Part shown: piece after piece, positions 1,175-21,174 of the stretch
Layout of the letters: every line of letters begins with the position of its first letter
Position numbering within the stretch: position 1 is the first letter of the stretch
From: Trichlorobacter lovleyi SZ
GTDB lineage: Bacteria; Desulfobacterota; Desulfuromonadia; Geobacterales; Pseudopelobacteraceae
Assembly: GCF_000020385.1 (NCBI RefSeq)
Contig: NC_010814.1
Coordinates: 2,790,001 to 2,822,000, forward strand
Direction: 5' to 3'
Length of the DNA: 32,000 nt
Made by a program: the position numbers and the translations under genes
The notes under the pieces: model-generated
Told to the model about the DNA's origin: nothing
The model's input: the letters and a program-made list of their open reading frames with translations, nothing else
Databases searched by the model: none

Positions 1175-1185
1175 TCCGGTACTTT

Positions 1186-2154: not shown

Positions 2155-2179
2155 AACAGGCTCGAAAGGAGAAGGAATC

Positions 2180-2623: not shown

Positions 2624-2648
2624 TCCGTTGCTGCACGGCATCTTTGAA

Positions 2649-2676
2649 GGCCCGCCTCACTGGCGGGCCTTTTTTG
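2649..2676 (+). terminator. Rho-independent terminator after rplI
   Basis: An 8-bp GC stem (ggcccgcc / ggcgggcc) with loop tcact is followed by a T6 run. Confidence 0.8.
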
Positions 2677-2702
2677 TTTCGCCGCTAAAGGCGCTCTCCC
2701 GA

Positions 2703-2731
2703 TTGACAATCAAGGCATTCCAGTGGAGAAT
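2703..2731 (+). promoter_or_regulatory. Candidate sigma-70 promoter for the CorC-type gene
   Basis: TTGACA (2703-2708), a 17-nt spacer, then GAGAAT (2726-2731). The predicted TSS is only ~3 nt before the ATG at 2741. Confidence 0.3.
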
Positions 2732-2740
2732 AGTCCCGCT

Positions 2741-4078
2741 ATGGACACCGTGACTCTAGAACTGATTGTGATTATCCTGCTGATAGGCCTGAACGGTTTT
2801 TTCTCCATGGCGGAGTTTGCCATCATCTCAATCCGCAAGGGCAGAATTGCCCAGCTGGTTGCTGACGGGGATGAGCGGGCAGAGATTATCGAACAGTTCC
2901 AGAAAGACCCGCATCCCCTGCTGGCCGTCATCCAGATCGGTGTTACGGTTGCCGGTTCTGCCGCTTCAACCGTGGGCGGCATCATTGCGATTGAACACCT
3001 GCGCCCCACCCTGCTGAACCTGCCCTGGCCACTCCTGCAAAAAGCGGCTGAACCCCTGGCCGCGCTGACGGTTGTTGTCGTCGTTTCGTATGTCTCCCTG
3101 ATCATCGGTGAGCTTGTTCCCAAGGCAATCGGGCTGCAGTACGCCGACAAGGTGGCCCTGAGTCTGGCCCGTCCAATGCGGATCATTGCACGGCTTACCT
3201 CTCCGGCAGTGTTGTTGCTGACCTCCTCCAGCAAGGCCGTGCAGCACCTGATCGGACTGCGGGGGGAACAGGATGCCTTCATTACACGCGAAGAGGTCCA
3301 GCACATGGTTATGGAAGGCCATGAGACCGGAGTCTTCAGCGAATCGGAAAACGAATACATCCGCAACGTCTTTGAATTCACCCATACCTGTGTCCGTGAA
3401 GTGATGGTGCCCCGCACCAGGATGGTTGCCCTTGAACTGCAGATGAGCCGGGATGAACTGGTCAGGATCATCCTGGAGGCGCAATACTCCCGTTATCCTG
3501 TCTACCATACCGACATCGAAGAGATCGTCGGTGTGCTGCATGACAAGGATATCATGGCTGCCCTGGTGAAGGGAGAGGAGCTGAACCTGGAGCAGATCAT
3601 CAGACCACCGGTCTTTGTTCCGGAAGGGAAGAAGGTTAATGAGCTGCTGAAAGAGATGCAGCGCACCCGTAACCATATGGCCCTGGTGGTTGATGAATAC
3701 GGCGGCATCTCCGGTCTGGTCACCACAGAGGATCTGCTGGAAGAACTGGTAGGGGAGATTGAAGACGAACACGATGCCGGCGAGCCCGGCAAGCTGGTGC
3801 AGCAGCCTGACGGCAGCTGGCTGGTTGATGGGCTGACCTCGATCTTTGACCTGCAGGAACCTTTGGGGATCAAACTGGAAGAGGCACCACTCTACGAGAC
3901 CGTAGCCGGACTGGTCCTGAACGAGCTGGGGCACCTGCCGCTGCAGGGAGAGACCGTTGATTGGAACGGTTTCAGACTGGTCTGCGAACAGGTCACCCGC
4001 ACCGCTATCCTGCAGGTACGGATCAGCATCCTGCAACCGGACCTCTCTCTCCCGCAACCCGGAACAGACGAACCCTGA
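2741..4078 (+). CDS. HlyC/CorC-family transporter (DUF21 membrane domain, CBS pair, CorC_HlyC C-terminal domain)
   Basis: The N-terminus [23 protein letters not shown] marks DUF21. [21 protein letters not shown] and [35 protein letters not shown] mark the CBS pair. A CorC-type transporter-associated domain follows. The ATG at 2741 is preferred over the GTG at 2723. Confidence 0.9.
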
Positions 4079-4091
4079 ACGGCGGCGCACT

Positions 4092-7000
4092 ATGCTGAGC
4101 ATCCCACGCGCACGGTTTCTTAAGCTGCTTATCCTGCTGCTGCTGCTGTTCGGCTCCCTCTCGCTGGGGCTTTCGATCCTGCTGCCCCGCCTGCTTGACC
4201 TGAACAGCTATAAAACCCAATTGACCGAGCTGCTGCAGCAACAACTGAAGCGTCAGGTCCGGTTGGGAAACAGCCAGTTTTCCTGGGTACTTGGCCCTGA
4301 ATTCACCTTCAGCGACCTGTACATCCAGGAACGCAACAGCTCTCTTGAATTTCTCTCCGCCCGCCGGATCTCCTTTCGTCTTGCCCTGTTACCGCTCCTG
4401 AACAAGAAGATTGAACTGCGCGAGATCATCATCGACGATGCCCGGGCCACTGTCAGCCGGGACGCGCAGGGCGTCATGAATATCGATGACCTGCTACAAC
4501 CGGCCCCTGACGCCTATGACCTGCGGGCCAGGGGGTTGCGTATCCGCAACGGCACCCTGTTCTGGCGGGATCAGGCAAGCGCTGAAATCTGCACCAGACT
4601 GACAGTCTCAGGCATTAACCTGAGTATTGACAAGCTGATCCGAGGCAGGAAAAGCTCTTACAAACTTGCCGCCACGCTGGAAGGCAGCAGTCCCGGCTCC
4701 ATCAACACAGCCGGCACGATCAGACTGCCCAAAACCGGCAATCTGCTGCAGCAGACGGATATTGATGCAAAACTTGACCTTACCCAGGTTGAGTACTGGC
4801 GTTTCTGGCCCTATATTGACGACTATGTGCCGTTTCCCTCCCCCGGTGGCACCGCTTCCCTGAATCTTGCCGTAAAAGGACGCTGGCAGAACCTGAAGGC
4901 CAACGGTACCCTGCTGCTGCGCAATCCCAAAGTGGTCTGGCCCACGGTATTCCATGCCGTGGTAGCCCCGAAGCAACTGCAGCTGGCCGTTGACCTCAAG
5001 TGGACCCCCAGCCTGCTGGATATGCCATCCGTGCAACTCAGCCTGGACGGTTTTGCCATCAAAGGTGCTGTCCGCCTGGGAGATCTGCAGGGTAAAGACC
5101 CATCCATCAGCGTCAAGGCCACGTCCGAGCCGTTTGATTACCTCCGTGTCAAAAACTACATCCCGTTCGGAATCATTGCCGATGATGCAGCCGGATTCAT
5201 CGAACACAAGATCAGAGGCGGCATCTTCAAACTGACCACCGGCACCCTCAATGGCCGATTCTCGCAGCTGGCCCGCTTCGGTATCGGCGACAATGCCAAC
5301 ACCCTGTATATCAGCGGCACTGCGGATCAGGCCAGCATCCAGTACGGCGAGAAAAGCCCCACCTTCCGCCAGATCAAGGGCACTCTGGAGATGAAGGGGC
5401 GCAATTTCAACCTGATCGGTATGAGCGGCAGCTTCGGGGGTTCCCCCTTTACCATGGAGGGGAGTATCACCGAGTATGCCACTGAAGGAGTCCCCTCCTT
5501 CTATCCCTTCAGCATGACTGTCTCCCCCCGTCCGGCAGAAGTAGCCTGGCTTGCCGAGATTGCCGGAGCAGACGCGCTTCGTTTCAACGGCAACGCAACG
5601 ACACTCAGGTTGCGGGGAGAAGGGCCGACCTCGGCCTATCGGCTCTCGGGTGAATGGCTCCTGACGACGGCTGCCTATGAATACCCGGCGGTTGTCAAAA
5701 AGCCGGCCAATCTGTCCAACAGCCTGACCTTCAGTGCGCTGCTGGGCAGGGATGCCACCAGATTCACCTCCATTTCGTACCAGCTGCCACCACTCAAGCT
5801 TTCCGGCAGTGGCCTGCTGCGCTATAGCGGCACGGTTCCGTACCTGGCCTTCGATCTGGAAACCAACCAGTTCCAGCTGGACAACCATCTGCCGATCCTG
5901 ACCGACTGGCAGGCCTACCAGTTGCGGGGAGGCGTACAGGCTCACCTGCTTGGCGAGGGCGATCCCCGCAGCATAGGCAGCATGCTGTTTTCAGGCATGG
6001 TCAAATTAAGCGGGTTCTCACTCAAACCCCATCAGAAGATTGCCCCGGTCAGCGCCATCAACACCCAGATCAACTTCAAAGGCAACTCCCTTGAAACTTC
6101 ACATATGGCGATCCGCTACGGCAGTACGCCGCTTAACATCAAGGGCCGGATCGCGAGCCTGAAAAACCCGGAGGCAGAGCTGATTATCAGCTCACCCGAC
6201 CTGAACCCGGCTGATTTCGGCCTCGCTCAGGCCGAAAAGCCGCCCCGGATACAGCAGTTCAGCACCAGTCTCGGCCTACGCGACGGCCTGCTGACAATCC
6301 GCAACGTCTCCGGCAAGCTGCCCAGGACCATCTTCAGCGCCTCCGGCACGGTCCGCACCGAAGGCACCCCGGATATCAACCTGCGAATAGCGGCGACCCA
6401 CCTTGACCTGGAGGAACTGCTGCCCCTTGTGGCCCCTTCACGTACGACAGACGCCGGAAAGAAACAACAGCCGCCAGCCCCGTTCAGGCTTCAGGCCTCT
6501 GTGACTGCCGAAACCGGCACCTTCCGCGGCACCAGCTTCAATAAACTCTCGGCATCCCTGAAAAACGAAGAGGGCATACTGAAGCTGCAGAAACTGACTA
6601 CCGGTATCCTCGGCGGCAAGCTTGCGTTGAACGGACAACTGGCCCGGACTGCGGGCCAGGCGCCCAAGTGGGATCTGTCTCTCCTGCTTGAACAGGCCAA
6701 GGCCGGAGAGCTATTGCAACTACTCAATATCGGAAAGGAAATACGGGGGTTGACCACCGTAAAAGGTCGGCTGAGCGCCAGCGGCGACCATCTTGACGAG
6801 ATCAAGAAAACAGCCAATGGCGCCATTACCCTCAAAGTGGAGCGGGGCGCCCTGAAACGCTTCAACACCCTCTCCAAGGTCATATCAATCCTGAATGTCT
6901 CGCAACTGCTCAGTTTCAGTCTGCCGGACATGGCCCGCGACGGCATGCCGTTCAACCAGATCACCGCCAGTATCGGCATCAAGAACGGCATCCTGACCAC

Positions 7001-9075: not shown

Positions 9076-10704
9076 ATGTCTAACAAGCCGTTCGTGTACC
9101 AGGAGCCGTTCCCCCTTGGCAAGGATGAGACCAGCTATTACAAGATTGAGGGTTCGGAGAAGTATGTCTCCGTGGCAGAGTTTGACGGCAAGCCGGTGGT
9201 CAAGGTCGATCCCGAGGCGCTGACCGTGCTGGCCAATCAGGCCATGAAGGACCTCTCCTTCCTGCTGCGTCCCAGCCACAACGAGCAGGTTGCCAAGATC
9301 CTGGCTGATCCCGAGGCATCCATGAACGACAAGGGCGTGGCCCTGGCCTTCCTGCGGAACGCCATGGTAGCAGCCAACTTTGAGCTGCCGCTCTGCCAGG
9401 ACACCGGCACCGCCACCATCGTGGCCAAGAAGGGCCAGCAGATCTGGACCGGCGGCAACGATGAAGAATATCTCTCCAAAGGGGTCTACAAGACCTACAC
9501 CGAAGAGAACCTGCGTTACTCCCAGACCGTGGCCCTGAACATGTACGATGAGGTCAACACCGGCACCAACCTGCCGGCCCAGATCGACATCATGGCCACC
9601 AGCGGCGACTACTACAAGTTCCTGTTCATGGCCAAGGGTGGCGGCTCCGCCAACAAGACCATGCTCTATCAGGAGACCAAGGCACTGCTGACCCCCGAGA
9701 AGCTGGAGAAGTTCCTGATCGAGAAGATGAAATACCTGGGCACCGCTGCCTGCCCTCCCTACCACATCGCCTTCGTAATCGGCGGCACCTCGGCCGATGC
9801 CTGCATGAAGACCGTCAAGCTGGCCACTGCCCGCGACATCGACGCACTGCCCACCGAAGGCAACGCCCACGGTCAGGCCTTCCGTGACGTTGAGCTGGAG
9901 GCCAAGCTGCTGACCGCAGCCCAGAAGCTGGGGATCGGTGCCCAGTTCGGCGGCAAGTACTTTGCCCATGATGTGCGCGTCATCCGCCTGCCCCGCCACG
10001 GCGCCTCCTGCCCGGTTGGCATGGCGGTTTCCTGCTCGGCAGACCGTAACCTCAAGGCCAAGATCACCAAGGACGGCCTCTTTATCGAACAGCTTGACCG
10101 CGATCCGGGCCGCCTGTTGCCAGAGCAGTACCGCATGGCCAAACATGAGCATGGCCACAAGGTTGACCTCTCCAAGCCGATCGCCGAGACCCTCAAAGAG
10201 CTGTCCGGCCTCAAGGTGGGTGATGCCCTGCTGCTGAACGGCACCATCGTGGTGGGCCGCGATATCGCCCATGCAAAGTTCAAAGAGATCCTTGACTCCG
10301 GTAAGCCGCTGCCCGAGTACCTGACCAAGTACCCGATCTACTACGCTGGCCCGGCCAAGACCCCTGCCGGCAAGCCATCCGGCTCGTTCGGCCCCACCAC
10401 CGCCGGCCGGATGGACTCCTACGTGGATCTGCTGCAGAGCAAGGGCGGCTCCATGATCATGATCGCCAAGGGCAACCGTTCGCAACAGGTGACGGATGCC
10501 TGCCAGAAGTACGGCGGTTTCTACCTGGGCTCCATTGGCGGCCCGGCTGCCATCCTGGCAGAAGAGAACATCAAGAAGGTTGAGTGCATTGACTTCCCTG
10601 AACTGGGTATGGAAGCCGTCTGGAAGATCGAAGTCGAGAATTTCCCGGCCTTTATCCTGGTGGATGACAAGGGCAACGACTTCTTCAAACAGCTGGGTCT
10701 GTAA
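9076..10704 (+). CDS. fumA: Class I (Fe-S, FumA/FumB-type) fumarate hydratase
   Basis: The product aligns along its length with my recollection of E. coli FumA. Matching segments include [87 protein letters not shown] and [23 protein letters not shown] aaaggag lies upstream of the ATG at 9076. Confidence 0.95.
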
Positions 10705-10728
10705 CGCTACCACGCACCACGCAGCACC

Positions 10729-10759
10729 AAGCCCCCGGTTACTGACCAACCGGGGGCTT
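10729..10759 (+). terminator. Hairpin terminator after fumA
   Basis: A 12-bp stem (aagcccccggtt / aaccgggggctt) with a 7-nt loop. The T tail is weak. Confidence 0.55.
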
Positions 10760-10791
10760 CGTATATTATCTATAAAGTGAGATCACGAACC

Positions 10792-11676
10792 ATGTTTAAC
10801 CTGAAACCTGAAGTCGTTGCCCGCCTTGAGCGGGTCTTAAGTTCGGTCGAGATGCTGCTGCCCCGTGCCATTGCCCCGGTTGACTGGTCAAGCTGCTATG
10901 CTGCCAACTGGCGCCGCCACTCTTTTTCCGGCTATCTGGAGGCGGTGCGGGTGACTGACACCACCACTCTGGAAGAGCTGTTGGGGGTTGATGAGCAGAA
11001 GGAGGTCATGCTGCACAACACCCGCCAGTTCTTGATGGGGCTGCCTGCCAACAACGCCCTGCTCTGGGGTTCACGAGGCACCGGCAAGTCGTCGTTGGTC
11101 AAGGCCCTGATGAACAAATTTGCCCCGGAAGGGCTGCGGGTGATCCAGATTGAGAAGGAAGACCTGATCTACCTGTCCGAGATCTTCAGCGCCGTCGAGA
11201 ATGAGCCCTACCGCTTCATCCTGCTCTGTGACGACCTGACCTTTGAGGTGGGGGAGCTGAGCTACAAGATGCTCAAGAGTGCCCTGGACGGTTCGGTTTA
11301 CTCGCCACCGGAGAACGTGCTGATCTACGTCACCTCCAACCGGCGCCACCTGCTGCCTGAGTACGAGTCAGACCACCTGGGGGGTAAGTTTGTACGGGGC
11401 GAGCTGCAGCAGAGTGAGGCAATGGAGGAAAAGGTCTCCCTGTCGGACCGCTTCGGCCTCTGGGTCGCCTTCTACGCCTTTTCCCAGGACCGCTACATCG
11501 ATGCCGTCCGGCTCAGCATCAGCCGCGAGGCCCGTGACCGCAAGGTTGAGATCCCCTGGACCAAGGAACTGGAACGCGAAGCGATCCAGTGGTCACAGGA
11601 AAAAAGCAAGCGCTGCGGCCGGACCGCCTACCAGTTCTCAAAGAACTATGTCGGCAGATTCCTGCTGCCGGCCTAA
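10792..11676 (+). CDS. DUF815-type AAA/P-loop ATPase
   Basis: Walker A is LLWGSRGTGKSSLVKAL. Walker B-like is RFILLCDDLTFE. The length and layout are typical of DUF815 ATP-binding proteins. Confidence 0.8.
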   Translation: MFNLKPEVVARLERVLSSVEMLLPRAIAPVDWSSCYAANWRRHSFSGYLEAVRVTDTTTLEELLGVDEQKEVMLHNTRQFLMGLPANNALLWGSRGTGKSSLVKALMNKFAPEGLRVIQIEKEDLIYLSEIFSAVENEPYRFILLCDDLTFEVGELSYKMLKSALDGSVYSPPENVLIYVTSNRRHLLPEYESDHLGGKFVRGELQQSEAMEEKVSLSDRFGLWVAFYAFSQDRYIDAVRLSISREARDRKVEIPWTKELEREAIQWSQEKSKRCGRTAYQFSKNYVGRFLLPA

Positions 11677-11730: not shown

Positions 11731-13362
11731 TTAATGATGGGCAAAGTGGTGTGACTTCTCCAGGTAGTATTCGTAGTTGCCCTCATAGGTCCGCATCTCA
11801 CCATGATCCACCTCAATCACCCGATCCACCAGGCAGCGCAGGAAGTGGCGGTCGTGGCTGACCAGCATCACGGTGCCGGTGAAGTTCTGCAGGGCATTCA
11901 GCAGCATCTCCCGTGAGCGGATGTCCAGGTGGTTGGTCGGCTCGTCCAGCACCAGAAAGTTGATCGGCCTGGCCAGCAGGGTTGCCAGCACGACCCGGCT
12001 TTTCTCACCACCGGAGAGGTTTTCGATCTTTTTATCAACGGCATCGCCGGAGAACAGGAAGGCCCCCAGCAGGTTCATGATTACCCCGCGATTGGCCAGC
12101 GGGAGCGCATCCTGCACCGTCTCAAAGATGCTCTTTTTCGGATCAAGAACCTCCATGGCATGCTGGCTGAAATAACCCAGCTCCACATTGGCCCCCAGAC
12201 TGACCGTGCCGCTGCTGGGCTCGGTCTGCCCGGCCAGCACCTTCAGGAAGGTGGATTTACCGGCACCGTTGACCCCTACCACCGCAATCTTGCTCTGACG
12301 TTTGATGATCCCGCTGACCCCGGAGAACACCGGCTTGACGCCGCCATCAGGCAGCGGCCACTGCTTGGCCAGGGCATTCATCACCACCACGTCATCGCCG
12401 CTGCGGGGCGGTTCGCTGAACTCAAAGCGCACCACCCGCTCTTCAGCCGGGATCTCAATCCGCTCGATCTTTTCAATCTTCTTGACCCGTGACTGGACCT
12501 GGGCGGCATGGGAAGCCCGGGCTGCAAAGCGGGCAATGAACTCCTCTTCCTTGGCCAGCATCTCTTGTTGGCGCTTGTGACTGGCCAGCAGCTGTTCATG
12601 CCTGATCTCACGTTCTTTCTCGTAGAAATCATAATTGCCGCCGTAGGTGGTGACCGTCTTGTTGGCCACTTCGACGATACGGGTCACAATCCGGTTCATG
12701 AAGTCCCGGTCGTGGCTGGTCATCAGCAGGGCACCGTCAAAGGTGTCGGCCAACCACTCCTCCAGCCAGACAATCGACTCCACATCCAGATGGTTGGTCG
12801 GCTCGTCCAACAGCAGCACATCCGGCTTCAAGGTCAGGATCTTGGCCAGGGCGATCCGCATCTTCCATCCGCCGGAGAACGACTCCACCGGATGATTAAA
12901 GCGATCCGGTCCGATCCCCAGGCCGGTCAGCACGGTCTGGGCACGGGTGTCCAGGTCATAGCCGCCGCGGTGCTCGAACTCCTCCTGGGCCACGCCGTAG
13001 CGTTCCAAAAGTGCTGCCATCTCGTCATCGGACTGGGGCTCGCACATGGCGGCCTCCATCTGCTTCAGCTCACCAGCCAGACGCATGGTCTCGGCTGACC
13101 CAGCCATCACCTCTTCCAGGGCAGACCTGCCGGACATATCCCCCACATCCTGAGAGAAGTAGCCGATGGTGGTCCGCTTGGCACAGGTCATGTCGCCGCT
13201 GTCCGGCTCTTCCTCACCGGTGATGATCCGAAAGATGGTGGTCTTGCCGGCACCGTTGGGGCCCACCAGGCCGGTGCGGGAACCGGGCAGGATCTGGAAC
13301 GAGGCGTCGCGGAACAGGACCTGCGAGCCATGCTGTTTGGTGATGTTGGAAAGGTGAATCAT
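11731..13362 (-). CDS. ABC-F family ATPase (two tandem ABC domains, no membrane domain; translation-factor-type)
   Basis: There are two Walker A motifs (GPNGAGKTT, GVNGAGKST), two signature motifs (FSGGWKMR, LSGGEKSR) and two Walker B motifs (LLLDEPTNHLD, LVLDEPTNHLD). A charged linker lies between the domains. Confidence 0.93.
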   Translation of the reverse strand: MIHLSNITKQHGSQVLFRDASFQILPGSRTGLVGPNGAGKTTIFRIITGEEEPDSGDMTCAKRTTIGYFSQDVGDMSGRSALEEVMAGSAETMRLAGELKQMEAAMCEPQSDDEMAALLERYGVAQEEFEHRGGYDLDTRAQTVLTGLGIGPDRFNHPVESFSGGWKMRIALAKILTLKPDVLLLDEPTNHLDVESIVWLEEWLADTFDGALLMTSHDRDFMNRIVTRIVEVANKTVTTYGGNYDFYEKEREIRHEQLLASHKRQQEMLAKEEEFIARFAARASHAAQVQSRVKKIEKIERIEIPAEERVVRFEFSEPPRSGDDVVVMNALAKQWPLPDGGVKPVFSGVSGIIKRQSKIAVVGVNGAGKSTFLKVLAGQTEPSSGTVSLGANVELGYFSQHAMEVLDPKKSIFETVQDALPLANRGVIMNLLGAFLFSGDAVDKKIENLSGGEKSRVVLATLLARPINFLVLDEPTNHLDIRSREMLLNALQNFTGTVMLVSHDRHFLRCLVDRVIEVDHGEMRTYEGNYEYYLEKSHHFAHH

Positions 13363-13383
13363 AAAACAGACTCCAATATAAAT

Positions 13384-14703
13384 TTAGCGCGGCCGTTGCG
13401 TCCGCTGCGGATGTCGCGCCCCACCGGCTGGCGCAGGTTTGCTGCCACTTGGCTTGGACCCTGCAGCGGCGTGTGCGGCGCCCTGCCCTGCTGCCGGCTT
13501 CGGCTGTGGCTTCTTGGCCTTGGGCTGGTTCCGTGGCGGACGTGGCGGACGGGCAAACTCGTCATCCTTGCGCGGGGCAGGCACGCTGTAATCAAACCCC
13601 TCCACGGTACGACGTTCAATGGCAGCCCCCAGAGTGCGCTCAATCGCCTTGACCATGAGCGTGTCCTCATCGGTGACCATGGTAAAGGCATCGCCGTTTC
13701 TGGCGGCCCGGCCGGTACGGCCGATGCGGTGGATATAGGCCTCACTGGTATCCGGGATATCATAGTTGATCACGTGGGAGACCTGCGAGACATCAATACC
13801 GCGGGCGGCAATGTCGGTTGCCACCAGGATCTGATAGGTACCGTTACGGAAGCCGTCCATGGCAGCCTGACGCCGGTTCTGGGAAAGGTTGCCCTGCAGC
13901 GAGGCCGCAGTGTAGCCGGCCTTTTCCAGCTGTTCCCCCACCCGCTTGGCGCGGTGCTTGGTGCGGGTAAAGATCAGCACCGAATCAGTATCGGTATGCT
14001 TCAGCAACTGCATCAGCAACGGCGTCTTCAGGTGCTGGGCCACCGGATAGAGCGCATGGCTGACCGTGGCGGCCGGAGCAACGTTATCCACCTGCACCGT
14101 GGCCGGATCGCGCAGGATCTCGCGGGCCAGGCCGCGGATCTCGGCCGGCATGGTGGCGGAAAACAGCATGGTCTGACGCTGGGCAGGCAGGTGTTTCAGA
14201 ATCCGGCGAATATCCGGCAGAAACCCCATATCAAACATCTGGTCGGCCTCGTCCAGCACCAGCAGTTCCAGGTTAGTCAGGTCAATCGTGCCCTGGTTGA
14301 TATGATCCAGCAGGCGGCCGGGGCAGGCCACGACGATCTCTACCCCGTTTTTGAGCTTCTCAATCTGCGGATTGACGTTGACGCCACCGTAGACGGTGAT
14401 GCTTTTCAGACGGGTCTGCTGCCCCAGCTCCAGCATGGCATCATTGATCTGCTCAGCCAGCTCGCGGGTCGGGGCAATCACCAGGGCGCGCACCTGTTTG
14501 CGCGGCCCCTGCATCAGACGGTGCAGGATCGGCAGGGCAAAGGCAGCGGTCTTGCCGGTGCCGGTCTGGGCCAGTCCCATCAGGTCATGGCCGGCCATGA
14601 TCTTCGGTATGGCCTGGGCCTGGATCGGTGTGGGGGTGGTGTAGCCAAGGGCATTGATTCCTGCTACGACTTTGGGGTGAAAACTAAACTGTTGAAACGG
14701 CAT
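13384..14703 (-). CDS. rhlE: DEAD-box ATP-dependent RNA helicase, RhlE-like, with a basic Pro/Lys/Arg C-terminal tail
   Basis: Q motif is TPTPIQ. Motif I is AQTGTGKT. Also present are PTRELA, LVLDEADQMFD (DEAD box), SAT and HRIGRTGRA. It ends 21 nt before the ABC-F start, so co-transcription is likely. Confidence 0.92.
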   Translation of the reverse strand: MPFQQFSFHPKVVAGINALGYTTPTPIQAQAIPKIMAGHDLMGLAQTGTGKTAAFALPILHRLMQGPRKQVRALVIAPTRELAEQINDAMLELGQQTRLKSITVYGGVNVNPQIEKLKNGVEIVVACPGRLLDHINQGTIDLTNLELLVLDEADQMFDMGFLPDIRRILKHLPAQRQTMLFSATMPAEIRGLAREILRDPATVQVDNVAPAATVSHALYPVAQHLKTPLLMQLLKHTDTDSVLIFTRTKHRAKRVGEQLEKAGYTAASLQGNLSQNRRQAAMDGFRNGTYQILVATDIAARGIDVSQVSHVINYDIPDTSEAYIHRIGRTGRAARNGDAFTMVTDEDTLMVKAIERTLGAAIERRTVEGFDYSVPAPRKDDEFARPPRPPRNQPKAKKPQPKPAAGQGAAHAAAGSKPSGSKPAPAGGARHPQRTQRPR

Positions 14704-14861
14704 CTACGTCCTTCTTTCTGTGTATGTCCGGCTTCACATCAAGGATGCAAACAAGGCGGCAAGGATTTCAGCGACGAAGGCGTACGCAACCGGTACGTTG
14801 AGGAAGCTGAAGACGAGCCAACGATAGAATAGCGCCTTGAGTTGGAGGCGGACGAGATCAA

Positions 14862-14890
14862 GAAAAAAGCCCCGGAATGGTCCGGGGCTA
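14862..14890 (-). terminator. Orphan intrinsic terminator (or attenuator) in the helicase leader
   Basis: The minus-strand RNA reads AGCCCCGG-accauu-CCGGGGCU followed by U6. It lies ~160 nt upstream of the helicase ATG. No co-directional gene lies upstream. Confidence 0.6.
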
Positions 14891-14939
14891 CAAGTGCTCT
14901 TAAACTCGTGATCTTCCTGGAACAGCTGAATAATGTCAA

Positions 14940-14968
14940 AGAATATCAGTTAGGCCGTCACAGGTCAA
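14940..14968 (-). promoter_or_regulatory. Candidate sigma-70 promoter driving the helicase leader
   Basis: On the minus strand: TTGACC (14968-14963), a 17-nt spacer, then TATTCT (14945-14940). A second overlapping candidate is TTGACA-17-GAAGAT at 14939-14911. Confidence 0.4.
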
Positions 14969-15047
14969 ACAAAATGCTGACATCCTATTCTGATCCAACC
15001 AACAGGCAGCACTGCCGGAAAAAGCCTATGTCCGGCGCCGTTGCAGC

Positions 15048-15076
15048 TTGACCGCGGCACACTCTGCCTGCATAAT
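15048..15076 (+). promoter_or_regulatory. Candidate sigma-70 promoter for the CHASE2 cyclase gene
   Basis: TTGACC (15048-15053), a 17-nt spacer, then CATAAT (15071-15076). This lies ~115 nt upstream of the ATG. Confidence 0.5.
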
Positions 15077-15190
15077 GCCGATATCTTTCCAGATATTACG
15101 TTTCATCGCAACAACAGCCGCATCACCGGGACAAGCGGGAAAGACAGCCCCGCCAAGACTGTGCAGCCATGACCCCCATCAGGAGTTGCC

Positions 15191-17167
15191 ATGAAAACCA
15201 CCCATTCAAAACTGATCCGGATCCTGATCGGCTTTGCCGCCACCGCGTTATTCAGCCTGCTGTTGCTTAAACCACCCCATGTCTATAATCTGATTGAAGC
15301 CAAGCTGTATGACATCCGCTTCAAGCTGCGCGGCAGCATCCCTCCCCCTGATTCGGTCGTGATTGCCACCATTGATGAAAAGAGCCTGGAGCGCCTGGGA
15401 CGCTGGCCCTGGAGCCGCACTACCCTGGCCCGCCTGGTTGAGCGCCTGAACCAGGCAGATGCGGCGGTGATTGCGTTTGACGTCATCTTTCCTGAGCCGG
15501 AGGCCCATGACGAGACGTTTGCCCGTGCGATCGAACAGGCCGGCACCGTCTTGCTGGCGGTGGCTTTTGATTTTGAACACAAGGCAGACCAGGCCGCCGC
15601 AGACCCTGTTCTGGAGCAGTCGGCCATTGTGTCGGTGGAGCATGATGAGCTGTTCAACAATTATCCGCCGATCATCTCGGGCGGCATGCTGACGGTTCCG
15701 GTCAAAAAGCTTAAAGACAAGGCCCTGGGCTTTGCCCATATCAACATGTTTCCGGACGAGGTTGACGGCACCCTGCGATGGGAATCGCTTCTGCTGGGCC
15801 ATGACCGCTTCCTGTACCCCTCGCTGTCACTGCGGGCGGCAGCGGAATACCTGGGGATACCGCCGGAACGGATTGTTGTTGATGCCACCCGCGGCATCAG
15901 GGTCGGCAAGGTGTACATCCCTACAGATCACTGGGGACGGATGCCGGTCAACTACTACGGCCCCGGCAAGACCTTCCGGCATGTTTCCGTTATTGATATC
16001 CTGGACGGCAAGGTCGGCAGAAAGGAACTTGCCAACCGGGTCGTCTATATCGGCGCCACCGCCATCGGCATCTATGACCTCAGGGTGACTCCTGTCTCTG
16101 CAGCCTATCCCGGTGTGGAAAAGAGTGCTGCAGTAACGGCCTCAATCCTTGAGCAGCGCTTTATCCGCCAGGCATCCCAACAACAGAATCTGTTTTTCCT
16201 GCTCGGTAGCGGCATTCTGCTAAGCCTGCTGTTAAGCCGCGTACGTCTGGTCTGGGGGGCACTGGTGACCCTGCTGGTCCTGGCAGCGGTATTCCTGACC
16301 GGCCAGCTCTTTTTCAGCAGCGCCGGATTGTGGCTGAACCTGGCCTGTCCCTTGAACAACATCATCCTGATCTTCATGGCGGTCACGGCCTGGAACTACG
16401 CCTTTGAGGAACGCTATGCCCGCCAGATACGCGCCATGTTCTCCAGCTACGTAACCCAGACCATCGTCAACGAGCTGATCAACAACCCCCAGATGGCAAA
16501 ACTGGGTGGAGAGCGGCGGGTCATCACGGTCCTGTTCTCGGATGTCAAAGGGTTTACGACCTTTTCCGAACGACATACACCGGAGGAGGTGGTTGCCTTG
16601 CTGAACGAGTTCCTGGGGGCCATGACCGACGTCATCTTGAAGTGGGGCGGGACGCTGGATAAGTTCATCGGCGACGCCATCGTGGTATTCTGGAACGCGC
16701 CGGGGCCGGTGGAGAACCATGCCGAACGGGCGATCCGCTGCGCTGCCGAGATGATCGAGCGGCTGACGGAGTTGCAGCAGGCCTGGCAGCTGGCCGGCAA
16801 GCCGTGCCTGTCGGCAGGCATCGGCATCAACACCGGCGAGGCGGTGGTGGGCAACATCGGTGCTGAAGGCAAGAAGATGGACTACACCGTGATCGGTGAC
16901 CAGGTCAACCTGGGGGCACGCGTAGAGTCGCTGACCCGGCTGTTCAAGGCCGATATCCTGATCACCGAAGGGACCCTGGCGGCGCTGCAGCCGGGCATTG
17001 CGGCGGGTCAGCTGAACGGCATCGCCATCCGCGGTGTGCAACAGGTGATTGTGAAAGGAAAGGAACAGCCGGTCTGCCTGTACGCGGTCAGCATGTTGAG
17101 CAAAAATGAGCCGTTCAGGTTCAGTGAGTGCCCAGCCGGCGAACCGCTCAGGCTGACGGAGAAGTAG
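15191..17167 (+). CDS. CHASE2-sensor class III adenylate cyclase (membrane-anchored)
   Basis: An N-terminal TM is followed by a ~300-aa periplasmic region with CHASE2 hallmarks (IATIDEKSLERLGRWPWSR, VIAFDVIF.EPE). A block of 3 TM helices comes next. The cyclase domain reads RRVITVLFSDVKGFTTFSE...LDKFIGDAIVVFWN...DYTVIGDQVNLGARVES. SD aggag precedes the ATG. Confidence 0.9.
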   Translation: MKTTHSKLIRILIGFAATALFSLLLLKPPHVYNLIEAKLYDIRFKLRGSIPPPDSVVIATIDEKSLERLGRWPWSRTTLARLVERLNQADAAVIAFDVIFPEPEAHDETFARAIEQAGTVLLAVAFDFEHKADQAAADPVLEQSAIVSVEHDELFNNYPPIISGGMLTVPVKKLKDKALGFAHINMFPDEVDGTLRWESLLLGHDRFLYPSLSLRAAAEYLGIPPERIVVDATRGIRVGKVYIPTDHWGRMPVNYYGPGKTFRHVSVIDILDGKVGRKELANRVVYIGATAIGIYDLRVTPVSAAYPGVEKSAAVTASILEQRFIRQASQQQNLFFLLGSGILLSLLLSRVRLVWGALVTLLVLAAVFLTGQLFFSSAGLWLNLACPLNNIILIFMAVTAWNYAFEERYARQIRAMFSSYVTQTIVNELINNPQMAKLGGERRVITVLFSDVKGFTTFSERHTPEEVVALLNEFLGAMTDVILKWGGTLDKFIGDAIVVFWNAPGPVENHAERAIRCAAEMIERLTELQQAWQLAGKPCLSAGIGINTGEAVVGNIGAEGKKMDYTVIGDQVNLGARVESLTRLFKADILITEGTLAALQPGIAAGQLNGIAIRGVQQVIVKGKEQPVCLYAVSMLSKNEPFRFSECPAGEPLRLTEK

Positions 17168-17173
17168 CAGCGA

Positions 17174-17205
17174 CTGCGCCCCCCGCTTCAAAGCAGGGGG
17201 CGCAG
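17174..17205. terminator. GC-rich hairpin between the convergent cyclase and lipoprotein genes
   Basis: A 10-bp stem (ctgcgccccc / gggggcgcag) sits in the 44-nt convergent gap. There is no clear U tract on either side. Confidence 0.45.
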
Positions 17206-17211
17206 CTGTTC

Positions 17212-18582
17212 CTACTGCACGATATAGCTGGCGAGGCTTTCGGTCGTTGTCCTGCTGTCATACGGACCGGTACTGGTCTGGGACATCTTGACCAGACCGA
17301 CATAGGGGACATACCAGTAGTCACCGCTGACGGTGGTAACCCCAGGAGAAGGGGATGCCATCGTGATTGTTTCAGTAAAGCTGACCCTGATGGCGTTAAA
17401 GCTGCCGGCCGGGACCGTCACGGGTTCAGGACCGACCACGGTATGCTGACTGCTAATCGTGGCGCTGTACACGCTTGGCGTACTCCCGCTGGTGATGGTT
17501 TCTGTTCTGGTGGTTGAGCCGTTGACGATGGTCCCCGTTGCCAGCTGTCCGATAAAGACGATATAGCCGGGAGTGGTAAAGGTCTCACTGAAGGTGCTGG
17601 TCGAACTGCTGTTGCTGTATGTGTAGATCTTTGTGCCGTTCGAATTTTGCAGATAGCCGTTACCGTTTATGAGCAGCAGGTCGTCAATGGAGGTGCTGGT
17701 GGTGGTGCCGGTGCTGGTGGTTTCGGAACGATCCTGCTGGACGCTGAACCCGCTGACAGCCGTTGACACCTGGGTCACCAGCCGTGTCAACGACCCCGTT
17801 ACGGTCTCGTACATTGATGTTGTCGATGTGTCATAGATCCACTTGTTCCCGACGGTTATCGGGAAGTACGGCGTACCCGGCGCACCGGTAAAGTTCTGCC
17901 CGGTCAGGCTGGTTGTGTCGATAATCACCGTGGTACTGCTCGGCGTAAAGGTATAGTCGGTCTTTGAGGCGGTCAGCAGGTAGGTGCCGCTTGGCAGTCC
18001 GCTGATGGTGTAGTCGCCGTTGGCATCGGTGGTTGCGGAATAACTGGCAGTCAGTGCCGCAGCAGCATAGGCAATGGTGGAGGATTCGGCCGTAATGGTC
18101 ACCCCTTCCAACCCGGTGCTTCCGCCCAGGGTGACCTTGCCGCTGATGGAGTAGACCCCCACCGGCTCCATCACAACCGTGCCGGCATCACTGGTCTGGC
18201 CTGCCACAACCGTAATATTCGTCACCTCACCGACATAGAGGACAGCACCGGCACTGTCCAGCCCCAGTATCTTCAAGACCCTTTCAGTACCGACCGGCAC
18301 ACCGTCGATAGTGCCCTGACCATCTTCCACCGGAAAGTCTTTGGTGATAGGTGTCATGCCGGGACCGGAGACGGTAAGGCGGACCGTTACGGCCCCCGCC
18401 ATCTTTTCCACAACCGGCGCCCCCTTTGCGGCCGTACTCTTTGGCCAGGCAACATTCAGCGTAATGGTACCGGTGGTTCCGTTACCGGATGAAAAACTGG
18501 CCGTGCCACCGCCGCAACCGGCCAGGGAGAGCAGGCAACCGGCCAGAACCAGACTGGCTATGATCAGCAATCGTGTTTTCAT
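17212..18582 (-). CDS. Thr/Ser-rich lipoprotein with a carboxypeptidase-regulatory-like (CarboxypepD_reg) Ig/beta-sandwich domain and a beta-rich C-terminal domain
   Basis: The signal peptide has lipobox SLAGC followed by GGG (Gly at +2). The segment GKVTLGGSTGLEGVTITAES...TTDANGDYTISGLPSGTYLLTASKTDYTF is a typical CarboxypepD_reg repeat. SD gggagg lies upstream. Confidence 0.8.
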   Translation of the reverse strand: MKTRLLIIASLVLAGCLLSLAGCGGGTASFSSGNGTTGTITLNVAWPKSTAAKGAPVVEKMAGAVTVRLTVSGPGMTPITKDFPVEDGQGTIDGVPVGTERVLKILGLDSAGAVLYVGEVTNITVVAGQTSDAGTVVMEPVGVYSISGKVTLGGSTGLEGVTITAESSTIAYAAAALTASYSATTDANGDYTISGLPSGTYLLTASKTDYTFTPSSTTVIIDTTSLTGQNFTGAPGTPYFPITVGNKWIYDTSTTSMYETVTGSLTRLVTQVSTAVSGFSVQQDRSETTSTGTTTSTSIDDLLLINGNGYLQNSNGTKIYTYSNSSSTSTFSETFTTPGYIVFIGQLATGTIVNGSTTRTETITSGSTPSVYSATISSQHTVVGPEPVTVPAGSFNAIRVSFTETITMASPSPGVTTVSGDYWYVPYVGLVKMSQTSTGPYDSRTTTESLASYIVQ

Positions 18583-18598
18583 CTGAGCACCTCCCTTA

Positions 18599-19462
18599 TT
18601 ACTGCCATTTAGCCGTTACCGAGCCTGTCTGAGGAACCGCCGGCGGTGGAGGTGGCGGTGGAGGTGGCGGCGTCACCGTATCAGTGACAACCTGGGTAGC
18701 TGTCTTGACCAGCTGCGTGCTGAGGACCTCCGTCACGGGGACGGTTACACCATCTCCGGTCAGTGAGGCGGCAGCCGTCACCCCCTGACCGCCGCTACCG
18801 GATTTCCCGGCAGCACTGCCCTTCATTTTTTTAAGATCGCTATCCAGGGCCGGTCTCGGTGGTGACGGCCGGTTCCTGCCCAGCACCGTTGTAATCGTAC
18901 CGGGGGTCAGGTTGACAATCTGACCGTCCATCAGGGTATTGTAGACGTACACATCACCGGCGGTGACCAGCACGTTGGTCTGGGCCCTTTCATAGGCCAC
19001 GGTATAATCGGTACCCCGTACCCCGGCAATGGCGTTGGGGGTGCGGATCTCAAATCTCTTTACACCGGCTGCGGTGCTGGGGATCTTTTTCAGGTCAACA
19101 ATCGCCTGCAGCCTGCCCCTGACCAGTTTCACCTCACTGGAGCTGGGGCGTTTGGCGGAAAAATGTTCACCGATGTCAACCCGGCTGCGCTGGGCAATAC
19201 GCAGCACCGTGCCGTCGTTGTAGATCACCTCGGCGCTGCCGCCGGTCTTGGTACGGATCAGGTCACCGCTGGAGAGCCGGCTGCCGTTCTGACCGGCAAT
19301 GGCCGGCAGCCTGCCGTTACTGAGGATATCCACCCGGCCTGCCACCGCACGCAAGCTGGCAATGGCGGCAGCATGCAGATCAACGGCAGAGAAGAGGGAG
19401 ACCAGCAGGACGATGCTCAACCAGAGCGCGCCATTCCGCAGCATGTTTCCGATGTTCTTCAT
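18599..19462 (-). CDS. Secreted FecR-domain protein with no anti-sigma or TM module and a C-terminal Pro10 tract
   Basis: A cleavable signal peptide (WLSIVLLVSLFSAVDLHA) is present. The FecR-type core reads GRVDIL...GDLIRTKTGGSAEVIYNDGTVLRIAQRSRVDI...IRTPNAIAGVRGTDYTV. SD aaggagggg lies upstream. The gene starts 12 nt after the upstream OMP gene. Confidence 0.85.
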   Translation of the reverse strand: MKNIGNMLRNGALWLSIVLLVSLFSAVDLHAAAIASLRAVAGRVDILSNGRLPAIAGQNGSRLSSGDLIRTKTGGSAEVIYNDGTVLRIAQRSRVDIGEHFSAKRPSSSEVKLVRGRLQAIVDLKKIPSTAAGVKRFEIRTPNAIAGVRGTDYTVAYERAQTNVLVTAGDVYVYNTLMDGQIVNLTPGTITTVLGRNRPSPPRPALDSDLKKMKGSAAGKSGSGGQGVTAAASLTGDGVTVPVTEVLSTQLVKTATQVVTDTVTPPPPPPPPPPAVPQTGSVTAKWQ

Positions 19463-19474
19463 GGTATCCCCTCC

Positions 19475-20950
19475 TTAAAAGCGCAGCTCAACGCCGGTTG
19501 TAATCACATTGCGCTGATAATCGTACAGATCAACATTTGAGAAGGCGCGTGTAAAATAATACTGCAGGTTCAGATAGAGATGCGTCGTCAGCTGCTGATT
19601 CAGGGTGGCCGAGGCGACAAGCGTCGTGTCACGGCGGCCGCTGCTGCTGTCCAGGTACTCCTGCCGGCACCCCTCTGCGGTCAGGATCAGCTTGGTACTG
19701 GCGCTGAGCGGCGCCAGCAGGTCAACCCCTGCCCGCGCCCCCCGGTTACGCCACTCATTGCCCGTGGTATTTTCATAGAAGCCCTCGCCCCGCAGGTTCA
19801 CCAGACCGCGGCCATCGGCAAACAGGAAGATATAGCCGGCCTGCAGGTTGAAGATATTGGCGGTACGGTCGTTGGCGGGAAGGCCGTTGTTCTGGAGCAT
19901 ATCCCGGTAGGTATACCCGAGGGAGAGCTGTGCCAGGTTACGGGAGTTGAATATCGCGGTGAGGGTGGGTTTGAACGAGACCTGAAATGAGTAATCCCGG
20001 TAGTCCAGCGTGGTGTGGCTCAGGTTGAGCGGCAGGGCCAGCAATCCGTTCTCACTGCGGCCGATCAGGCTGGTGGTCAGGCCATGCACCAGCATGCTGT
20101 AATCATGCAGCCTCATGTAGTTGTTGTTCTGCAGGGCATACTGGAGGTTGGCAGACCACTGGCCGTCCAACGGGGTATCGTATTCCAGCCGCAGGTATTC
20201 AGAAACAGCGCTGTCCCGCTGGTCACGGGTGTCGGATGACGCACCGGACTCCCTGGACTTGAGGGTGGCGTTGTCGTCGTACAGATAGCTGACGCCGGCA
20301 TAGATATTCCAGCGTTTAAGGGGAGCGGCCGTACTGATCCGCTGATCGTATTCTGCGGCAAAATCTGCCGCCTCAGTACCGGGATAACGGGTCACGATCG
20401 CCTTCAGGCTGTCTCTGGCATCCTGGGTCTTGCCGGACTGGGCATAGGCCAGTGCAATCTGCAGGTCGATCTGCTGATCGGTCTCTGCAAGACCGGTACG
20501 GGCACTCTGAAACGATGCAACCGCCTCATGGTAGCGTTTCTGTTTGGCCAGCAGAACCCCCTTCAGATAGGCAATATCCTTGGGTCTGACCTGCTCCTTT
20601 TCCGCCCACGCCACCCATTGCCAGGCATCAGCCAGCTGCTCCAGGTTTATCAGCAGGGCCACCAGTTCCACAACCGCATCCTGTTCAGGCGGCTGTGCCT
20701 GCAGGGCCGCCTTGAGGCTGGCAACGGCCCCGGCCAGATCGCCGGTCTGTTTCTGGCACAGGCCGGTGTAGTACCTGTTCAGCGCCGTCTCCCCCTCGGC
20801 CTGCCTGGCCGAGGTCAGCATCTGCAGCGCCTCTTCGTAATTCTCCTGGTTGTACTCGGCAATTGCCTGCTGGGTGGCCGACGGGGCAGCAGTTGCAACA
20901 CCGCACGTCACAGACAGACAAACGACCATCACGGCTGCAATACGTTTCAT
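19475..20950 (-). CDS. Outer-membrane protein with an N-terminal TPR domain and a ~270-aa C-terminal beta-barrel (Slam/DUF560-like architecture)
   Basis: The signal peptide has an ATA/AP cleavage site. TPR-like helices cover ~residues 30-210 (YEEALQMLTSA, GDLAGAVASLKAAL, RYHEAVASF, AYAQSGKTQDARDSL). Alternating-polarity beta strands follow, ending ...TTGVELRF with a terminal aromatic OMP signature. The ATG at 20950 has SD gaggggg. Confidence 0.8.
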   Translation of the reverse strand: MKRIAAVMVVCLSVTCGVATAAPSATQQAIAEYNQENYEEALQMLTSARQAEGETALNRYYTGLCQKQTGDLAGAVASLKAALQAQPPEQDAVVELVALLINLEQLADAWQWVAWAEKEQVRPKDIAYLKGVLLAKQKRYHEAVASFQSARTGLAETDQQIDLQIALAYAQSGKTQDARDSLKAIVTRYPGTEAADFAAEYDQRISTAAPLKRWNIYAGVSYLYDDNATLKSRESGASSDTRDQRDSAVSEYLRLEYDTPLDGQWSANLQYALQNNNYMRLHDYSMLVHGLTTSLIGRSENGLLALPLNLSHTTLDYRDYSFQVSFKPTLTAIFNSRNLAQLSLGYTYRDMLQNNGLPANDRTANIFNLQAGYIFLFADGRGLVNLRGEGFYENTTGNEWRNRGARAGVDLLAPLSASTKLILTAEGCRQEYLDSSSGRRDTTLVASATLNQQLTTHLYLNLQYYFTRAFSNVDLYDYQRNVITTGVELRF

Positions 20951-21174
20951 ACTACCCCCTCTGAACATGGAATCGAACCGCACGTTCTTCAGTTCCAGAT
21001 ACCACCTTTTTTAAAAAATGCAAGTCAGGCCAATCAGTTTGGCGCAGCCTGACCAAACCTTGTTTAGTCTGAACAAACCGGATGAAAGCGCTCTTAATCG
21101 GGAGAGCAGCGTGCGCGGGACGTGATTACGCTGACAAAGCGGAGAGCAACCGGACAGAGCACCATACAAAGAAC

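Follow-up and report, generated by a model that had tools for sequence, protein, structure and literature searches.

A CHASE2 cyclase converges on an outer-membrane protein/FecR/lipoprotein operon

We examined a 32,000-nucleotide stretch of the genome of Trichlorobacter lovleyi SZ (contig NC_010814.1, positions 2,790,001 to 2,822,000; hereafter the window, numbered from its first letter) in which the gene for a class III adenylate cyclase with a CHASE2 sensor domain converges on a three-gene operon encoding an outer-membrane protein (OMP), an exported FecR-domain protein and a lipoprotein. An earlier note on this DNA had read the four genes as a candidate for an undescribed signalling module spanning the cell envelope. 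What that note had observed was confirmed, and its interpretation was supported in part. The genes, domains and non-coding element concerned are listed below (aa, amino acids; ORF, open reading frame; TPR, tetratricopeptide repeat).

15191-17167, plus strand: CHASE2-sensor class III adenylate cyclase, 658 aa (ORF table, Pfam, translation)
15248-16219, plus strand: CHASE2 domain of the cyclase, residues 20-343, predicted periplasmic (PF05226, E 1.2e-60)
16520-17068, plus strand: class III cyclase catalytic domain, residues 444-626 (PF00211, E 4e-23)
17163-17216, no strand: GC-rich hairpin between the convergent stop codons (folding free energy against shuffles)
17212-18582, minus strand: lipoprotein, 456 aa, third operon gene, lineage-specific (ORF table, Pfam)
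18599-19462, minus strand: exported short-form FecR-domain protein, 287 aa (ORF table, PF04773)
18602-18670, minus strand: run of ten prolines and then AVPQTGSVTAKWQ, residues 265-287 of the FecR protein (translation; putative function given below)
18950-19264, minus strand: FecR domain proper, residues 67-171 (PF04773, E 1.4e-17)
19475-20950, minus strand: OMP, 491 aa (ORF table, AlphaFold model, Pfam)
19481-20311, minus strand: 14-stranded beta-barrel of the OMP, residues 214-490 (DSSP on the AlphaFold model)
20327-20878, minus strand: periplasmic TPR domain of the OMP, residues 25-208 (model helices, TPR Pfam families)

The gene coordinates and spacing described earlier could all be read from the DNA. 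The operon genes are separated by 12 nucleotides (19463-19474) and 16 nucleotides (18583-18598), and 44 nucleotides (17168-17211) lie between the operon and the cyclase gene. Each operon gene has its own ribosome-binding site, AAGGAGG before the FecR start codon and GGGAGG before that of the lipoprotein. The longest ORF for the OMP, 19475-20983 on the minus strand, begins with GTG. Since the ATG at 20950, which is preceded by AGAGGGGG, is kept together with its ribosome-binding site in the related loci L005-L007, we preferred 19475-20950 as the OMP gene model. All three operon products carry the export signals attributed to them: signal peptides were read from the translations of the OMP (MKRIAAVMVVCLSVTCGVATA↓AP, the arrow marking cleavage) and of the FecR protein (...SAVDLHA↓AA), and an LAG↓C lipobox is readable in the lipoprotein.

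The 44-nucleotide gap does hold a shared GC hairpin. Its predicted folding energy is -36.6 kcal/mol (z = -5.9), and 0 of 200 shuffled sequences folded equally well. This hairpin is likely a bidirectional terminator, although it has no run of T residues and was not listed by a terminator scan that relies on such a run. The closest public relative of the locus, L005, comes from an uncultured Geobacter sp. metagenome-assembled genome (MAG) and is 93% identical over the CHASE2 region.

The cyclase appears intact

The cyclase consists of an N-terminal transmembrane (TM) segment, the periplasmic CHASE2 domain, three further TM segments and the catalytic domain, with hydrophobic segments at about residues 9-28 and 335-405 bounding the CHASE2 domain. 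Comparison with hidden Markov models (HMMs) identified the first part of the protein as CHASE2, as had been proposed, and an alignment of this domain from nine relatives contained 74 invariant columns. The catalytic motifs quoted in the earlier note, FSDVKGF, DKFIGDAIVV, DYTVIGD and VNLGARVES, are all present in the translation. They supply the metal-binding Asp residues (FSDVKGF and IGDAIVV), a Lys/Thr substrate pair (DKFIGD and DYTVIGD) and the transition-state Asn and Arg (VNLGARVES). The residue roles of class III cyclases are well established, and a Lys-Thr pair is the mark of ATP-using class IIIb enzymes. The protein is a bona fide, apparently intact CHASE2 class III adenylate cyclase, and because its motifs fit the established rules for class III we predict an active, ATP-using class IIIb enzyme. 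To our knowledge, no ligand or partner has been established for CHASE2 since the domain was first described. No known signal has been reported for it (PMC5192318), and deletion of CHASE2 from CyaD1 of Sinorhizobium meliloti resulted in constitutive activity (PMC5498481).

The outer-membrane protein may be a distant relative of Slam

An AlphaFold model of the OMP was built on 25 relatives and reached a predicted local distance difference test score (pLDDT) of 89.7. The model contains helices over residues 25-208 followed by exactly 14 strands over residues 214-490, as counted by DSSP, and Pfam comparison recovered TPR families together with barrel families at the C-terminus. PF04575 (SlipAM/DUF560) matched with 26.2 bits, the cut-off being 22 (E 7e-6), over profile positions 1-81 of 288 only. 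The same family was found in 19 of the 25 relatives (best E 7e-8), and TPR_Slam (PF24575) was found in 4 of them. Slam, or type 11, secretion proteins are built of a TPR domain joined to a 14-stranded DUF560 barrel, although PF04575 also catches PgaA-type porins (PMC8406197). Because of this shared architecture we named the OMP a distant Slam-like protein; with a weak and partial profile match, it may be a distant relative of the Slam/DUF560 family.

Structural searches placed the model closest to TPR-containing porins. The top Foldseek match was BcsC (E 1e-11, TM-score 0.43), followed by PelBC and by the 14-stranded barrels CymA, OmpG and FadL; no Slam structure was among the PDB matches listed for the model, and a PDB sequence search with the OMP profile returned TPR proteins only. 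The OMP nevertheless differs from the BcsC, PgaA and PelB export porins in having 14 strands rather than 16 and a TPR domain of only about 185 aa.

Comparison with the known type 11 proteins (Neisseria Slam1 and Slam2, NilB and HrpB) gave a mixed picture. The N-terminal TPR domain and 14-stranded barrel are shared, the PF04575 match, weak and partial as it is, lies above the Pfam cut-off, and the OMP gene, like those of the type 11 proteins, adjoins genes for exported proteins and lipoproteins. In contrast, the partner encoded beside the OMP has an N-terminal FecR fold, the locus is linked to a cyclase, and the organisms are free-living anaerobes. Type 11 cargo ends in a C-terminal 8-stranded barrel; the long FecR partners described below end in a beta-rich stretch of about 135 aa that was modelled at a pLDDT of only 45-60. 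Among the papers searched, none joined DUF560 and FecR.

Short and giant forms of the FecR protein

In the window FecR protein the FecR fold comes right after the cleavable signal peptide, and there is no cytoplasmic anti-sigma domain and no TM segment, as the earlier note had reported. Its order is signal peptide, FecR fold, disordered linker, poly-proline run and terminal strand motif. A PDB sequence search with this protein found nothing meaningful. The AlphaFold model of a relative, P0068, exceeded a pLDDT of 90 over its FecR part, which Foldseek matched to the periplasmic domains of the anti-sigma proteins BDI_1681 (4m0h, E 7e-6) and PupR (6ovk, E 1e-4).

The short members of the family, to which the window protein belongs, carry a Ser/Thr/Gly-rich linker with about 65 disordered residues and then a poly-proline run. 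Such a run is present in 43 of 75 short family members and in 1 of 655 control ORFs, the family sequences being related to one another rather than independent. The short forms end in a brief alternating, strand-like motif that often closes on Phe or Trp, TNVNVDVKF in many of them and TGSVTA(T/K)W in the clade of the window. Taken together, the poly-proline run and terminal strand look like a periplasm-spanning rod and a strand that would dock on the partner OMP. By a rough estimate, about 80 linker residues in extended form could reach about 25 nm, long enough for the periplasm. At the C-termini of P0036-P0039 the Geobacter-clade motif is tandemly duplicated (...GSVGATWTPAAKPGTVTGTW), which suggests a docking peptide that can be repeated.

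The length of the FecR protein differed sharply with its genomic setting. Cyclase-linked FecR proteins have a median length of 287 aa, whereas among unlinked ones the median is about 1550 aa and the longest has 3325 aa; these usually contain no other Pfam domain. The long form is carried by Citrifermentans bremense and Geobacter sp. OR-1, among others. A C-terminal module is common to the long forms; the 135 or so residues at its end are beta-rich, finish in GTAAG (...GTAAGxxK) and belong to no Pfam family. The module was modelled at a pLDDT of only 45-60, and Foldseek matches for that part were meaningless. It is absent from the window FecR protein, and its HMM matched nothing in the window.

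The module is seen, for example, at the end of a 1445-aa FecR protein (L015:11962-12370), and also in L001, L002, L012, L023, L025, L036, L039, L045, L050, L059, L064 and P0066-P0073, with partial internal copies in some proteins. At L151:11510-21487, L137:11676-21512, L134:11612-20911 and L163:11635-20205, the gene directly downstream of a Slam-like OMP encodes a giant exported protein, in the range of 2800-3325 aa. When four giant FecR-headed proteins (1803-2856 aa, including that of L163) were scanned against Pfam, the N-terminal FecR domain was the only confident match; these proteins are an uncharacterised family.

The OMP-FecR pair is recurrently linked to CHASE2 cyclases

Related loci were collected in two ways. 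In the genome scan, one genome per species was kept and an alignment of CHASE2 alone was used, which yielded 80 loci, 34-93% identical; these were searched with HMMs made in this analysis, and a pair was counted when it lay within 10 kb of the cyclase. An OMP gene directly followed by a FecR gene was found in 26 of the 80. When the cyclase was at least 41% identical the pair was present in 25 of 47 loci, and in 20 of the 27 among these that had full flanks. The carriers include Geobacter, Citrifermentans, Desulfuromonadaceae, Desulfobotulus, Syntrophus, Syntrophorhabdus, Thermodesulfovibrio and other Nitrospirota, so that the linkage spans two phyla, Thermodesulfobacteriota and Nitrospirota. 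Four arrangements were seen: 20 loci are convergent, like the window, 3 are tandem with the pair downstream and 3 tandem with it upstream, and L004 is divergent. The co-localisation that the earlier note described is therefore not limited to this strain or its close relatives.

In Desulfobotulus (L023:6858-9902/9899-11962 and L064:6816-9893/9890-11953) the FecR stop codon overlaps the cyclase start by 4 nucleotides, which makes OMP, FecR and cyclase one operon. In a Thermodesulfovibrio MAG (L032) two different CHASE2 cyclases (9628-11526 and 13999-16074) flank a single OMP/FecR pair. In three further loci, L014, L029 and L044, a long FecR-type protein is cut by the edge of the locus.

The second scan searched metagenomes with an OMP alignment and gave 80 further loci. 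A FecR gene lies directly downstream of the OMP gene in 61 of the 65 that had DNA there. For OMPs at least 32% identical, a CHASE2 cyclase was in the locus in 14 of 27 cases, and in 6 of the 8 with at least 5 kb on both sides. In word-based searches, the FecR neighbours of distant OMP relatives (35% and 28% identity) were 1310 and 1648 aa long, and no cyclase lay closer than 8 kb. FecR relatives at a greater distance yet, for example those of Pseudobdellovibrionaceae, have the reverse order and lie beside TPR proteins of 652-660 aa; two of three TPR proteins from such reversed loci matched the OMP profile across the barrel. Because scans from both the OMP side and the FecR side show the pairing, mostly without a cyclase, we take the OMP/FecR pair to be the conserved core and the cyclase-linked branch, including the window, to be a derived sub-family in which the FecR protein is shortened.

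Pairwise distances of FecR and OMP correlated well in a mirror-tree comparison (r = 0.70-0.77), and on this measure the two proteins co-evolve. The FecR protein tracked the barrel (partial r 0.51) more than the TPR domain (partial r 0.25).

Several other genes recur beside the related cyclases. A class II cAMP phosphodiesterase (PF02112) is near the cyclase in 29 of the 80 loci; the 255-aa protein encoded at L018:16611-17378 (PF02112, E 4e-17) adjoins it. A GAF-domain PilB/T2SSE-like ATPase, possibly a pilus or secretion ATPase under cAMP control, is encoded directly upstream in 15 loci (L013:8139-9926 and L012:7429-9732, for example), and the context of the distant pair in L002 also has MshEN/T2SSE/T2SSF genes. 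GAF/PAS proteins are near the cyclase in 24 loci. A 214-aa protein that is CRP-like by sequence is encoded just upstream of the cyclase in 18 Nitrospirota loci (L049:9269-9910), and that cyclase clade is the one without the OMP/FecR pair. None of these four gene types occurs in the window. At L004, where the cyclase is divergent from the OMP/FecR operon, a two-partner secretion system (1-5317), whose components are a ShlB/POTRA transporter and a two-partner secretion (TPS) domain protein longer than 2580 aa, adjoins the cyclase. Some Nitrospirota encode after the cyclase a polytopic membrane protein with a C-terminal TPR domain (L014:12003-13922, L016:11952-13727); by sequence it resembles the glycosyltransferase-39/PMT type and is unrelated to the barrel OMP.

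The third gene of the operon is variable

In the lipoprotein the lipobox LSLAG↓CGGG leads into a Gly/Ser-rich linker; beta-sandwich domains (CarboxypepD_reg at residues 145-222) come next, and the C-terminal domain is DUF3108-like. The earlier note had counted it as a component of the module. Among 85 loci, however, it is present only in L005, and it is missing from L006 and L007, where the cyclase is 78% identical and the FecR gene ends beside the cyclase gene. An exhaustive search of 1.84 billion representatives returned thousands of matches to the CarboxypepD_reg-like repeat alone and only two full-length relatives, P0219 (97% identical) and P0271 (40%; DUF3108_like E 7e-12). Judged by this distribution, the lipoprotein is not a conserved or core component.

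A third gene 5-30 nucleotides after a short FecR gene is nonetheless common among the related loci. Its product is variable, either a lipoprotein with a Gly-rich linker after the Cys or a large protein with Ig-like, beta-propeller, FG-GAP or sortilin-type repeats. Because the slot is conserved while its occupant varies, the pattern fits an exchangeable surface or ligand-binding component. An origin of the lipoprotein by splitting from the long FecR proteins was considered and rejected, as phmmer and BLAST gave no similarity even at relaxed thresholds.

Flanking DNA and neighbouring genes

The genes around the locus are of a housekeeping kind: LpxC, fumarase, DUF815, ABC-F, a DEAD-box helicase, a CBS-type pyrophosphatase and a nitroreductase. 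No glycosyltransferase or polysaccharide synthase gene lies near the locus. A hairpin with a T-run at 21010-21079, which ends about 60 nucleotides ahead of the OMP start, is probably the terminator of the pyrophosphatase gene; it is preceded by an inverted repeat, TTGTT-N7-AACAA, that is kept in L005 and not in L006 or L007. A candidate sigma-54 promoter at about 21020 (TGGCC...TTGCA) was rejected by inspection, as its GG-GC spacing is 8 rather than 10. The 500-aa ORF at 13330-14832 on the plus strand matches no family, overlaps the DEAD-box helicase gene (13384-14703, minus strand) in antisense and is almost certainly not a gene.

Relation to known systems

The suggestion that the module was undescribed did not hold. 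A cluster of CHASE2 cyclase, phosphodiesterase, FecR and TPR-protein genes was reported in Campylobacterota by Mo et al. in 2022, who suggested that the genes share a pathway and have spread horizontally to other phyla (PMC9239204). Compared by gene type, that cluster and the window have in common the CHASE2 class III cyclase, the exported FecR-domain protein and the TPR protein. The fourth type, the class II cAMP phosphodiesterase, is absent from the window although present in the 29 related loci noted above, and the window differs further in its extra lipoprotein gene and its phylum. The Campylobacterota paper gives no mechanism and no structure, and the TPR protein was not recognised there as a barrel OMP (PMC9239204).

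Similar operons are also known in which the CHASE2 sensor is a histidine kinase. In the Burkholderia 'BiofilmReg' operon and at PA4035/PA4036 of Pseudomonas aeruginosa, a LysM-FecR protein is encoded with a CHASE2 histidine kinase (PMC5192318). There, as in the window family, a FecR-domain protein with only a signal peptide stands immediately beside a CHASE2 sensor; the output in contrast is through a histidine kinase with its response regulator, a LysM domain is part of the FecR protein, and the operon encodes no TPR-barrel OMP.

That an OMP acts upstream of CHASE2 cyclases in signalling has been established genetically in S. meliloti (PMC7529298). In the NsrA-CyaD1/CyaD2/CyaK-Clr cascade, NsrA, a beta-barrel protein of the outer membrane, is required to activate the CHASE2 adenylate cyclases in answer to a protein signal from the plant (PMC7529298, PMC13001267). 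At about 1200 aa, NsrA differs from the window OMP.

Fec/Pup cell-surface signalling offers a parallel through the FecR fold itself. The window shares the periplasmic FecR fold of these systems (the PupR and BDI_1681 matches above), and its FecR protein is likewise encoded beside an OMP with a periplasmic protein-binding domain. The logic that we propose for the window would also be shared, an event at the outer membrane being relayed to a signalling protein of the inner membrane. However, the window lacks the cytoplasmic anti-sigma domain, the TM segment and the extracytoplasmic function (ECF) sigma factor; the Fec/Pup receptor is 22-stranded and TonB-dependent with an STN domain, whereas the window OMP has a TPR domain and 14 strands; and the proposed output is cAMP. 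As the earlier note had stated for a smaller region, the ORFs of at least 150 aa across the whole window included neither an ECF sigma factor nor a TonB-dependent receptor. Neither was seen in the related loci whose genes were examined, although those loci were not scanned specifically.

The comparison with TonB is by analogy only. TonB spans the periplasm as a proline-rich rod, and its terminal element pairs with an outer-membrane protein by strand addition. The FecR protein and TonB are not homologous; TonB has its anchor in the inner membrane and is energised by ExbBD, whereas the tether proposed for the window would be anchored at the outer membrane.

A model in which an outer-membrane tether controls CHASE2

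The gene content, the folds, the near-obligate pairing of OMP and FecR and the recurrent linkage to cyclases are shown by the data. For the physical contacts, the role of the tether and the direction of the signal we infer the following model, to which we give slightly less than an even chance: a FecR tether anchored in the outer membrane controls an autoinhibitory CHASE2 domain, and cAMP synthesis is thereby set by events at the outer membrane. The terminal strand or linker would keep the FecR protein attached to its OMP partner, and the FecR fold, the same one that binds outer-membrane transducers in Fec/Pup signalling, would reach the periplasmic CHASE2 domain. CHASE2 would normally hold the cyclase off. 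Events at the outer membrane, perhaps sensed in the window strain via the variable lipoprotein encoded next, would alter the contact between FecR and CHASE2 and thereby change cAMP synthesis.

A more specific version of this model, which we consider somewhat unlikely when taken as a whole, holds that the short FecR proteins are the long-sought periplasmic partners of CHASE2. The Slam-like OMP would hold a TonB-like FecR tether whose head switches CHASE2, creating a route from the outer membrane to cAMP, or to phosphorylation with other CHASE2 outputs, that is independent of sigma factors and of TonB. This route would have arisen by truncation of the giant exoprotein of a type-11-like OMP/FecR secretion pair not recognised before.

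A number of findings weigh against the tether model. In the window the cyclase gene converges on the operon and is thus not co-transcribed with it, and the 32-kb window contains neither a CRP-type cAMP receptor gene nor a phosphodiesterase gene. In the distant cyclase clades (the approximately 631-aa proteins of Nitrospirota and 751-aa proteins of Syntrophales) the pair is within 10 kb in only 1 of 33 loci. The more distant OMPs have a cyclase in 2 of 53 loci and in 0 of the 15 with at least 5 kb on both sides, and the pair is also found with no cyclase nearby in L001, L002 and L085-L089; in most of the wider family it is autonomous and cyclase-free and was not made for CHASE2. The distances of CHASE2 and FecR correlate weakly (r 0.20, partial r 0.23), as do those of CHASE2 and the OMP (r 0.28-0.33), so that there is no co-evolution signal for a CHASE2-FecR interface; this result leaves such a contact neither supported nor excluded. 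By locus-tag numbering, S. meliloti smc02177 presumably lies beside cyaD1. The FecR protein that it encodes is an output regulated by cAMP and Clr and is dispensable for signal perception (PMC5498481). The proposal in the earlier note that the outer-membrane and periplasmic proteins form the input device of CHASE2 thus stands in one part, the conserved link of the OMP/FecR pair to the cyclase, and is weakened in another, as the family of pairs is mostly cyclase-free and includes giant FecR proteins.

One alternative puts secretion first. The Slam/type-11-like OMP could export its neighbour or display it on the surface; in most lineages this would be the FecR-headed protein, in the window perhaps the lipoprotein. 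The cyclase would only regulate or monitor export and would not receive an environmental signal through it; the TPR region of the OMP would recognise the FecR fold, much as the TPS domain is recognised in two-partner secretion. We consider this reading unlikely, although much of the evidence above agrees with it: the combination of TPR repeats, a 14-stranded barrel and a PF04575 match, the near-obligate and mostly cyclase-free pairing, partners of up to 3325 aa that have a conserved C-terminal module of about 135 aa and no other Pfam domain, third genes after the short FecR gene whose products (lipoproteins with Gly-rich linkers, Ig and propeller proteins) resemble surface proteins, and the closer tracking of FecR with the barrel than with the TPR domain. 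Against it, the PF04575 match is weak and partial in a family that also takes in PgaA-type porins (PMC8406197), the 8-stranded barrel that defines type 11 cargo was not demonstrated in the poorly modelled module, and the window FecR protein does not have the module at all. Export would also leave unexplained why the FecR proteins of the cyclase-linked branch are truncated and tether-like, and why linkage to CHASE2 was acquired repeatedly and independently.

The operon might instead be an output of the cyclase rather than its input, a target of cAMP via a CRP-family regulator encoded elsewhere that remodels the cell surface. A precedent is found in S. meliloti, in which the TPR protein SMb20495, like SMc02177, is activated by Clr and cAMP and is not needed for signal perception (PMC5498481). 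Related loci often add the class II cAMP phosphodiesterase, CRP-like and GAF-domain genes, which make them whole cAMP regulons, and the weak co-evolution of CHASE2 with FecR fits as well. However, no CRP-type operator was enriched upstream of the operon or the cyclase; 7 CRP-type site matches were found in the window where 12.8 were expected, none of them convincing at 20951-21174, and the missing CRP gene tells against this explanation too. The FecR domain and CHASE2 are both periplasmic, which makes direct contact topologically possible, and the stop-start overlap in the two Desulfobotulus loci puts FecR and cyclase in one transcript. In addition, exported FecR proteins adjoin CHASE2 kinases that make no cAMP (PMC5192318). 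We regard an output role as distinctly unlikely. Neither secretion nor output is fully exclusive of the tether model.

Functionless adjacency, or an OMP that exports exopolysaccharide as a BcsC/PgaA/PelB-type porin and has no relation to the cyclase, would suit the best Foldseek matches (BcsC, E 1e-11, and PelBC) and the strong hairpin that parts the convergent genes, but is highly improbable given that linkage recurs in two independent samples (26/80 and 14/27) and four arrangements where a rough estimate puts a chance FecR gene in a 20-kb window at about 2-3% of loci, that 34-93% identity over two phyla speaks against one recently transferred island, and that the barrel has 14 strands rather than 16 with no glycosyltransferase or synthase genes nearby.

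What the locus adds

The window copy is an ordinary member of its family, and the locus is a new member of a type of gene cluster that was noticed before and never studied experimentally. New here are the Slam-like identity of the OMP, at the strength given above, the near-obligate OMP-FecR pairing, the dichotomy between short tethers and giant proteins, and the non-core status of the lipoprotein. Together with a scattered literature, these data mark an exported FecR fold as the recurrent genomic neighbour of CHASE2, and the locus shows how such a FecR protein could be tied physically to the outer membrane. The OMP-FecR pairs appear to make up a large outer-membrane system, uncharacterised so far, whose exoproteins reach about 3300 aa. 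For the orphan CHASE2 sensor domain, the locus provides a concrete, testable candidate partner.

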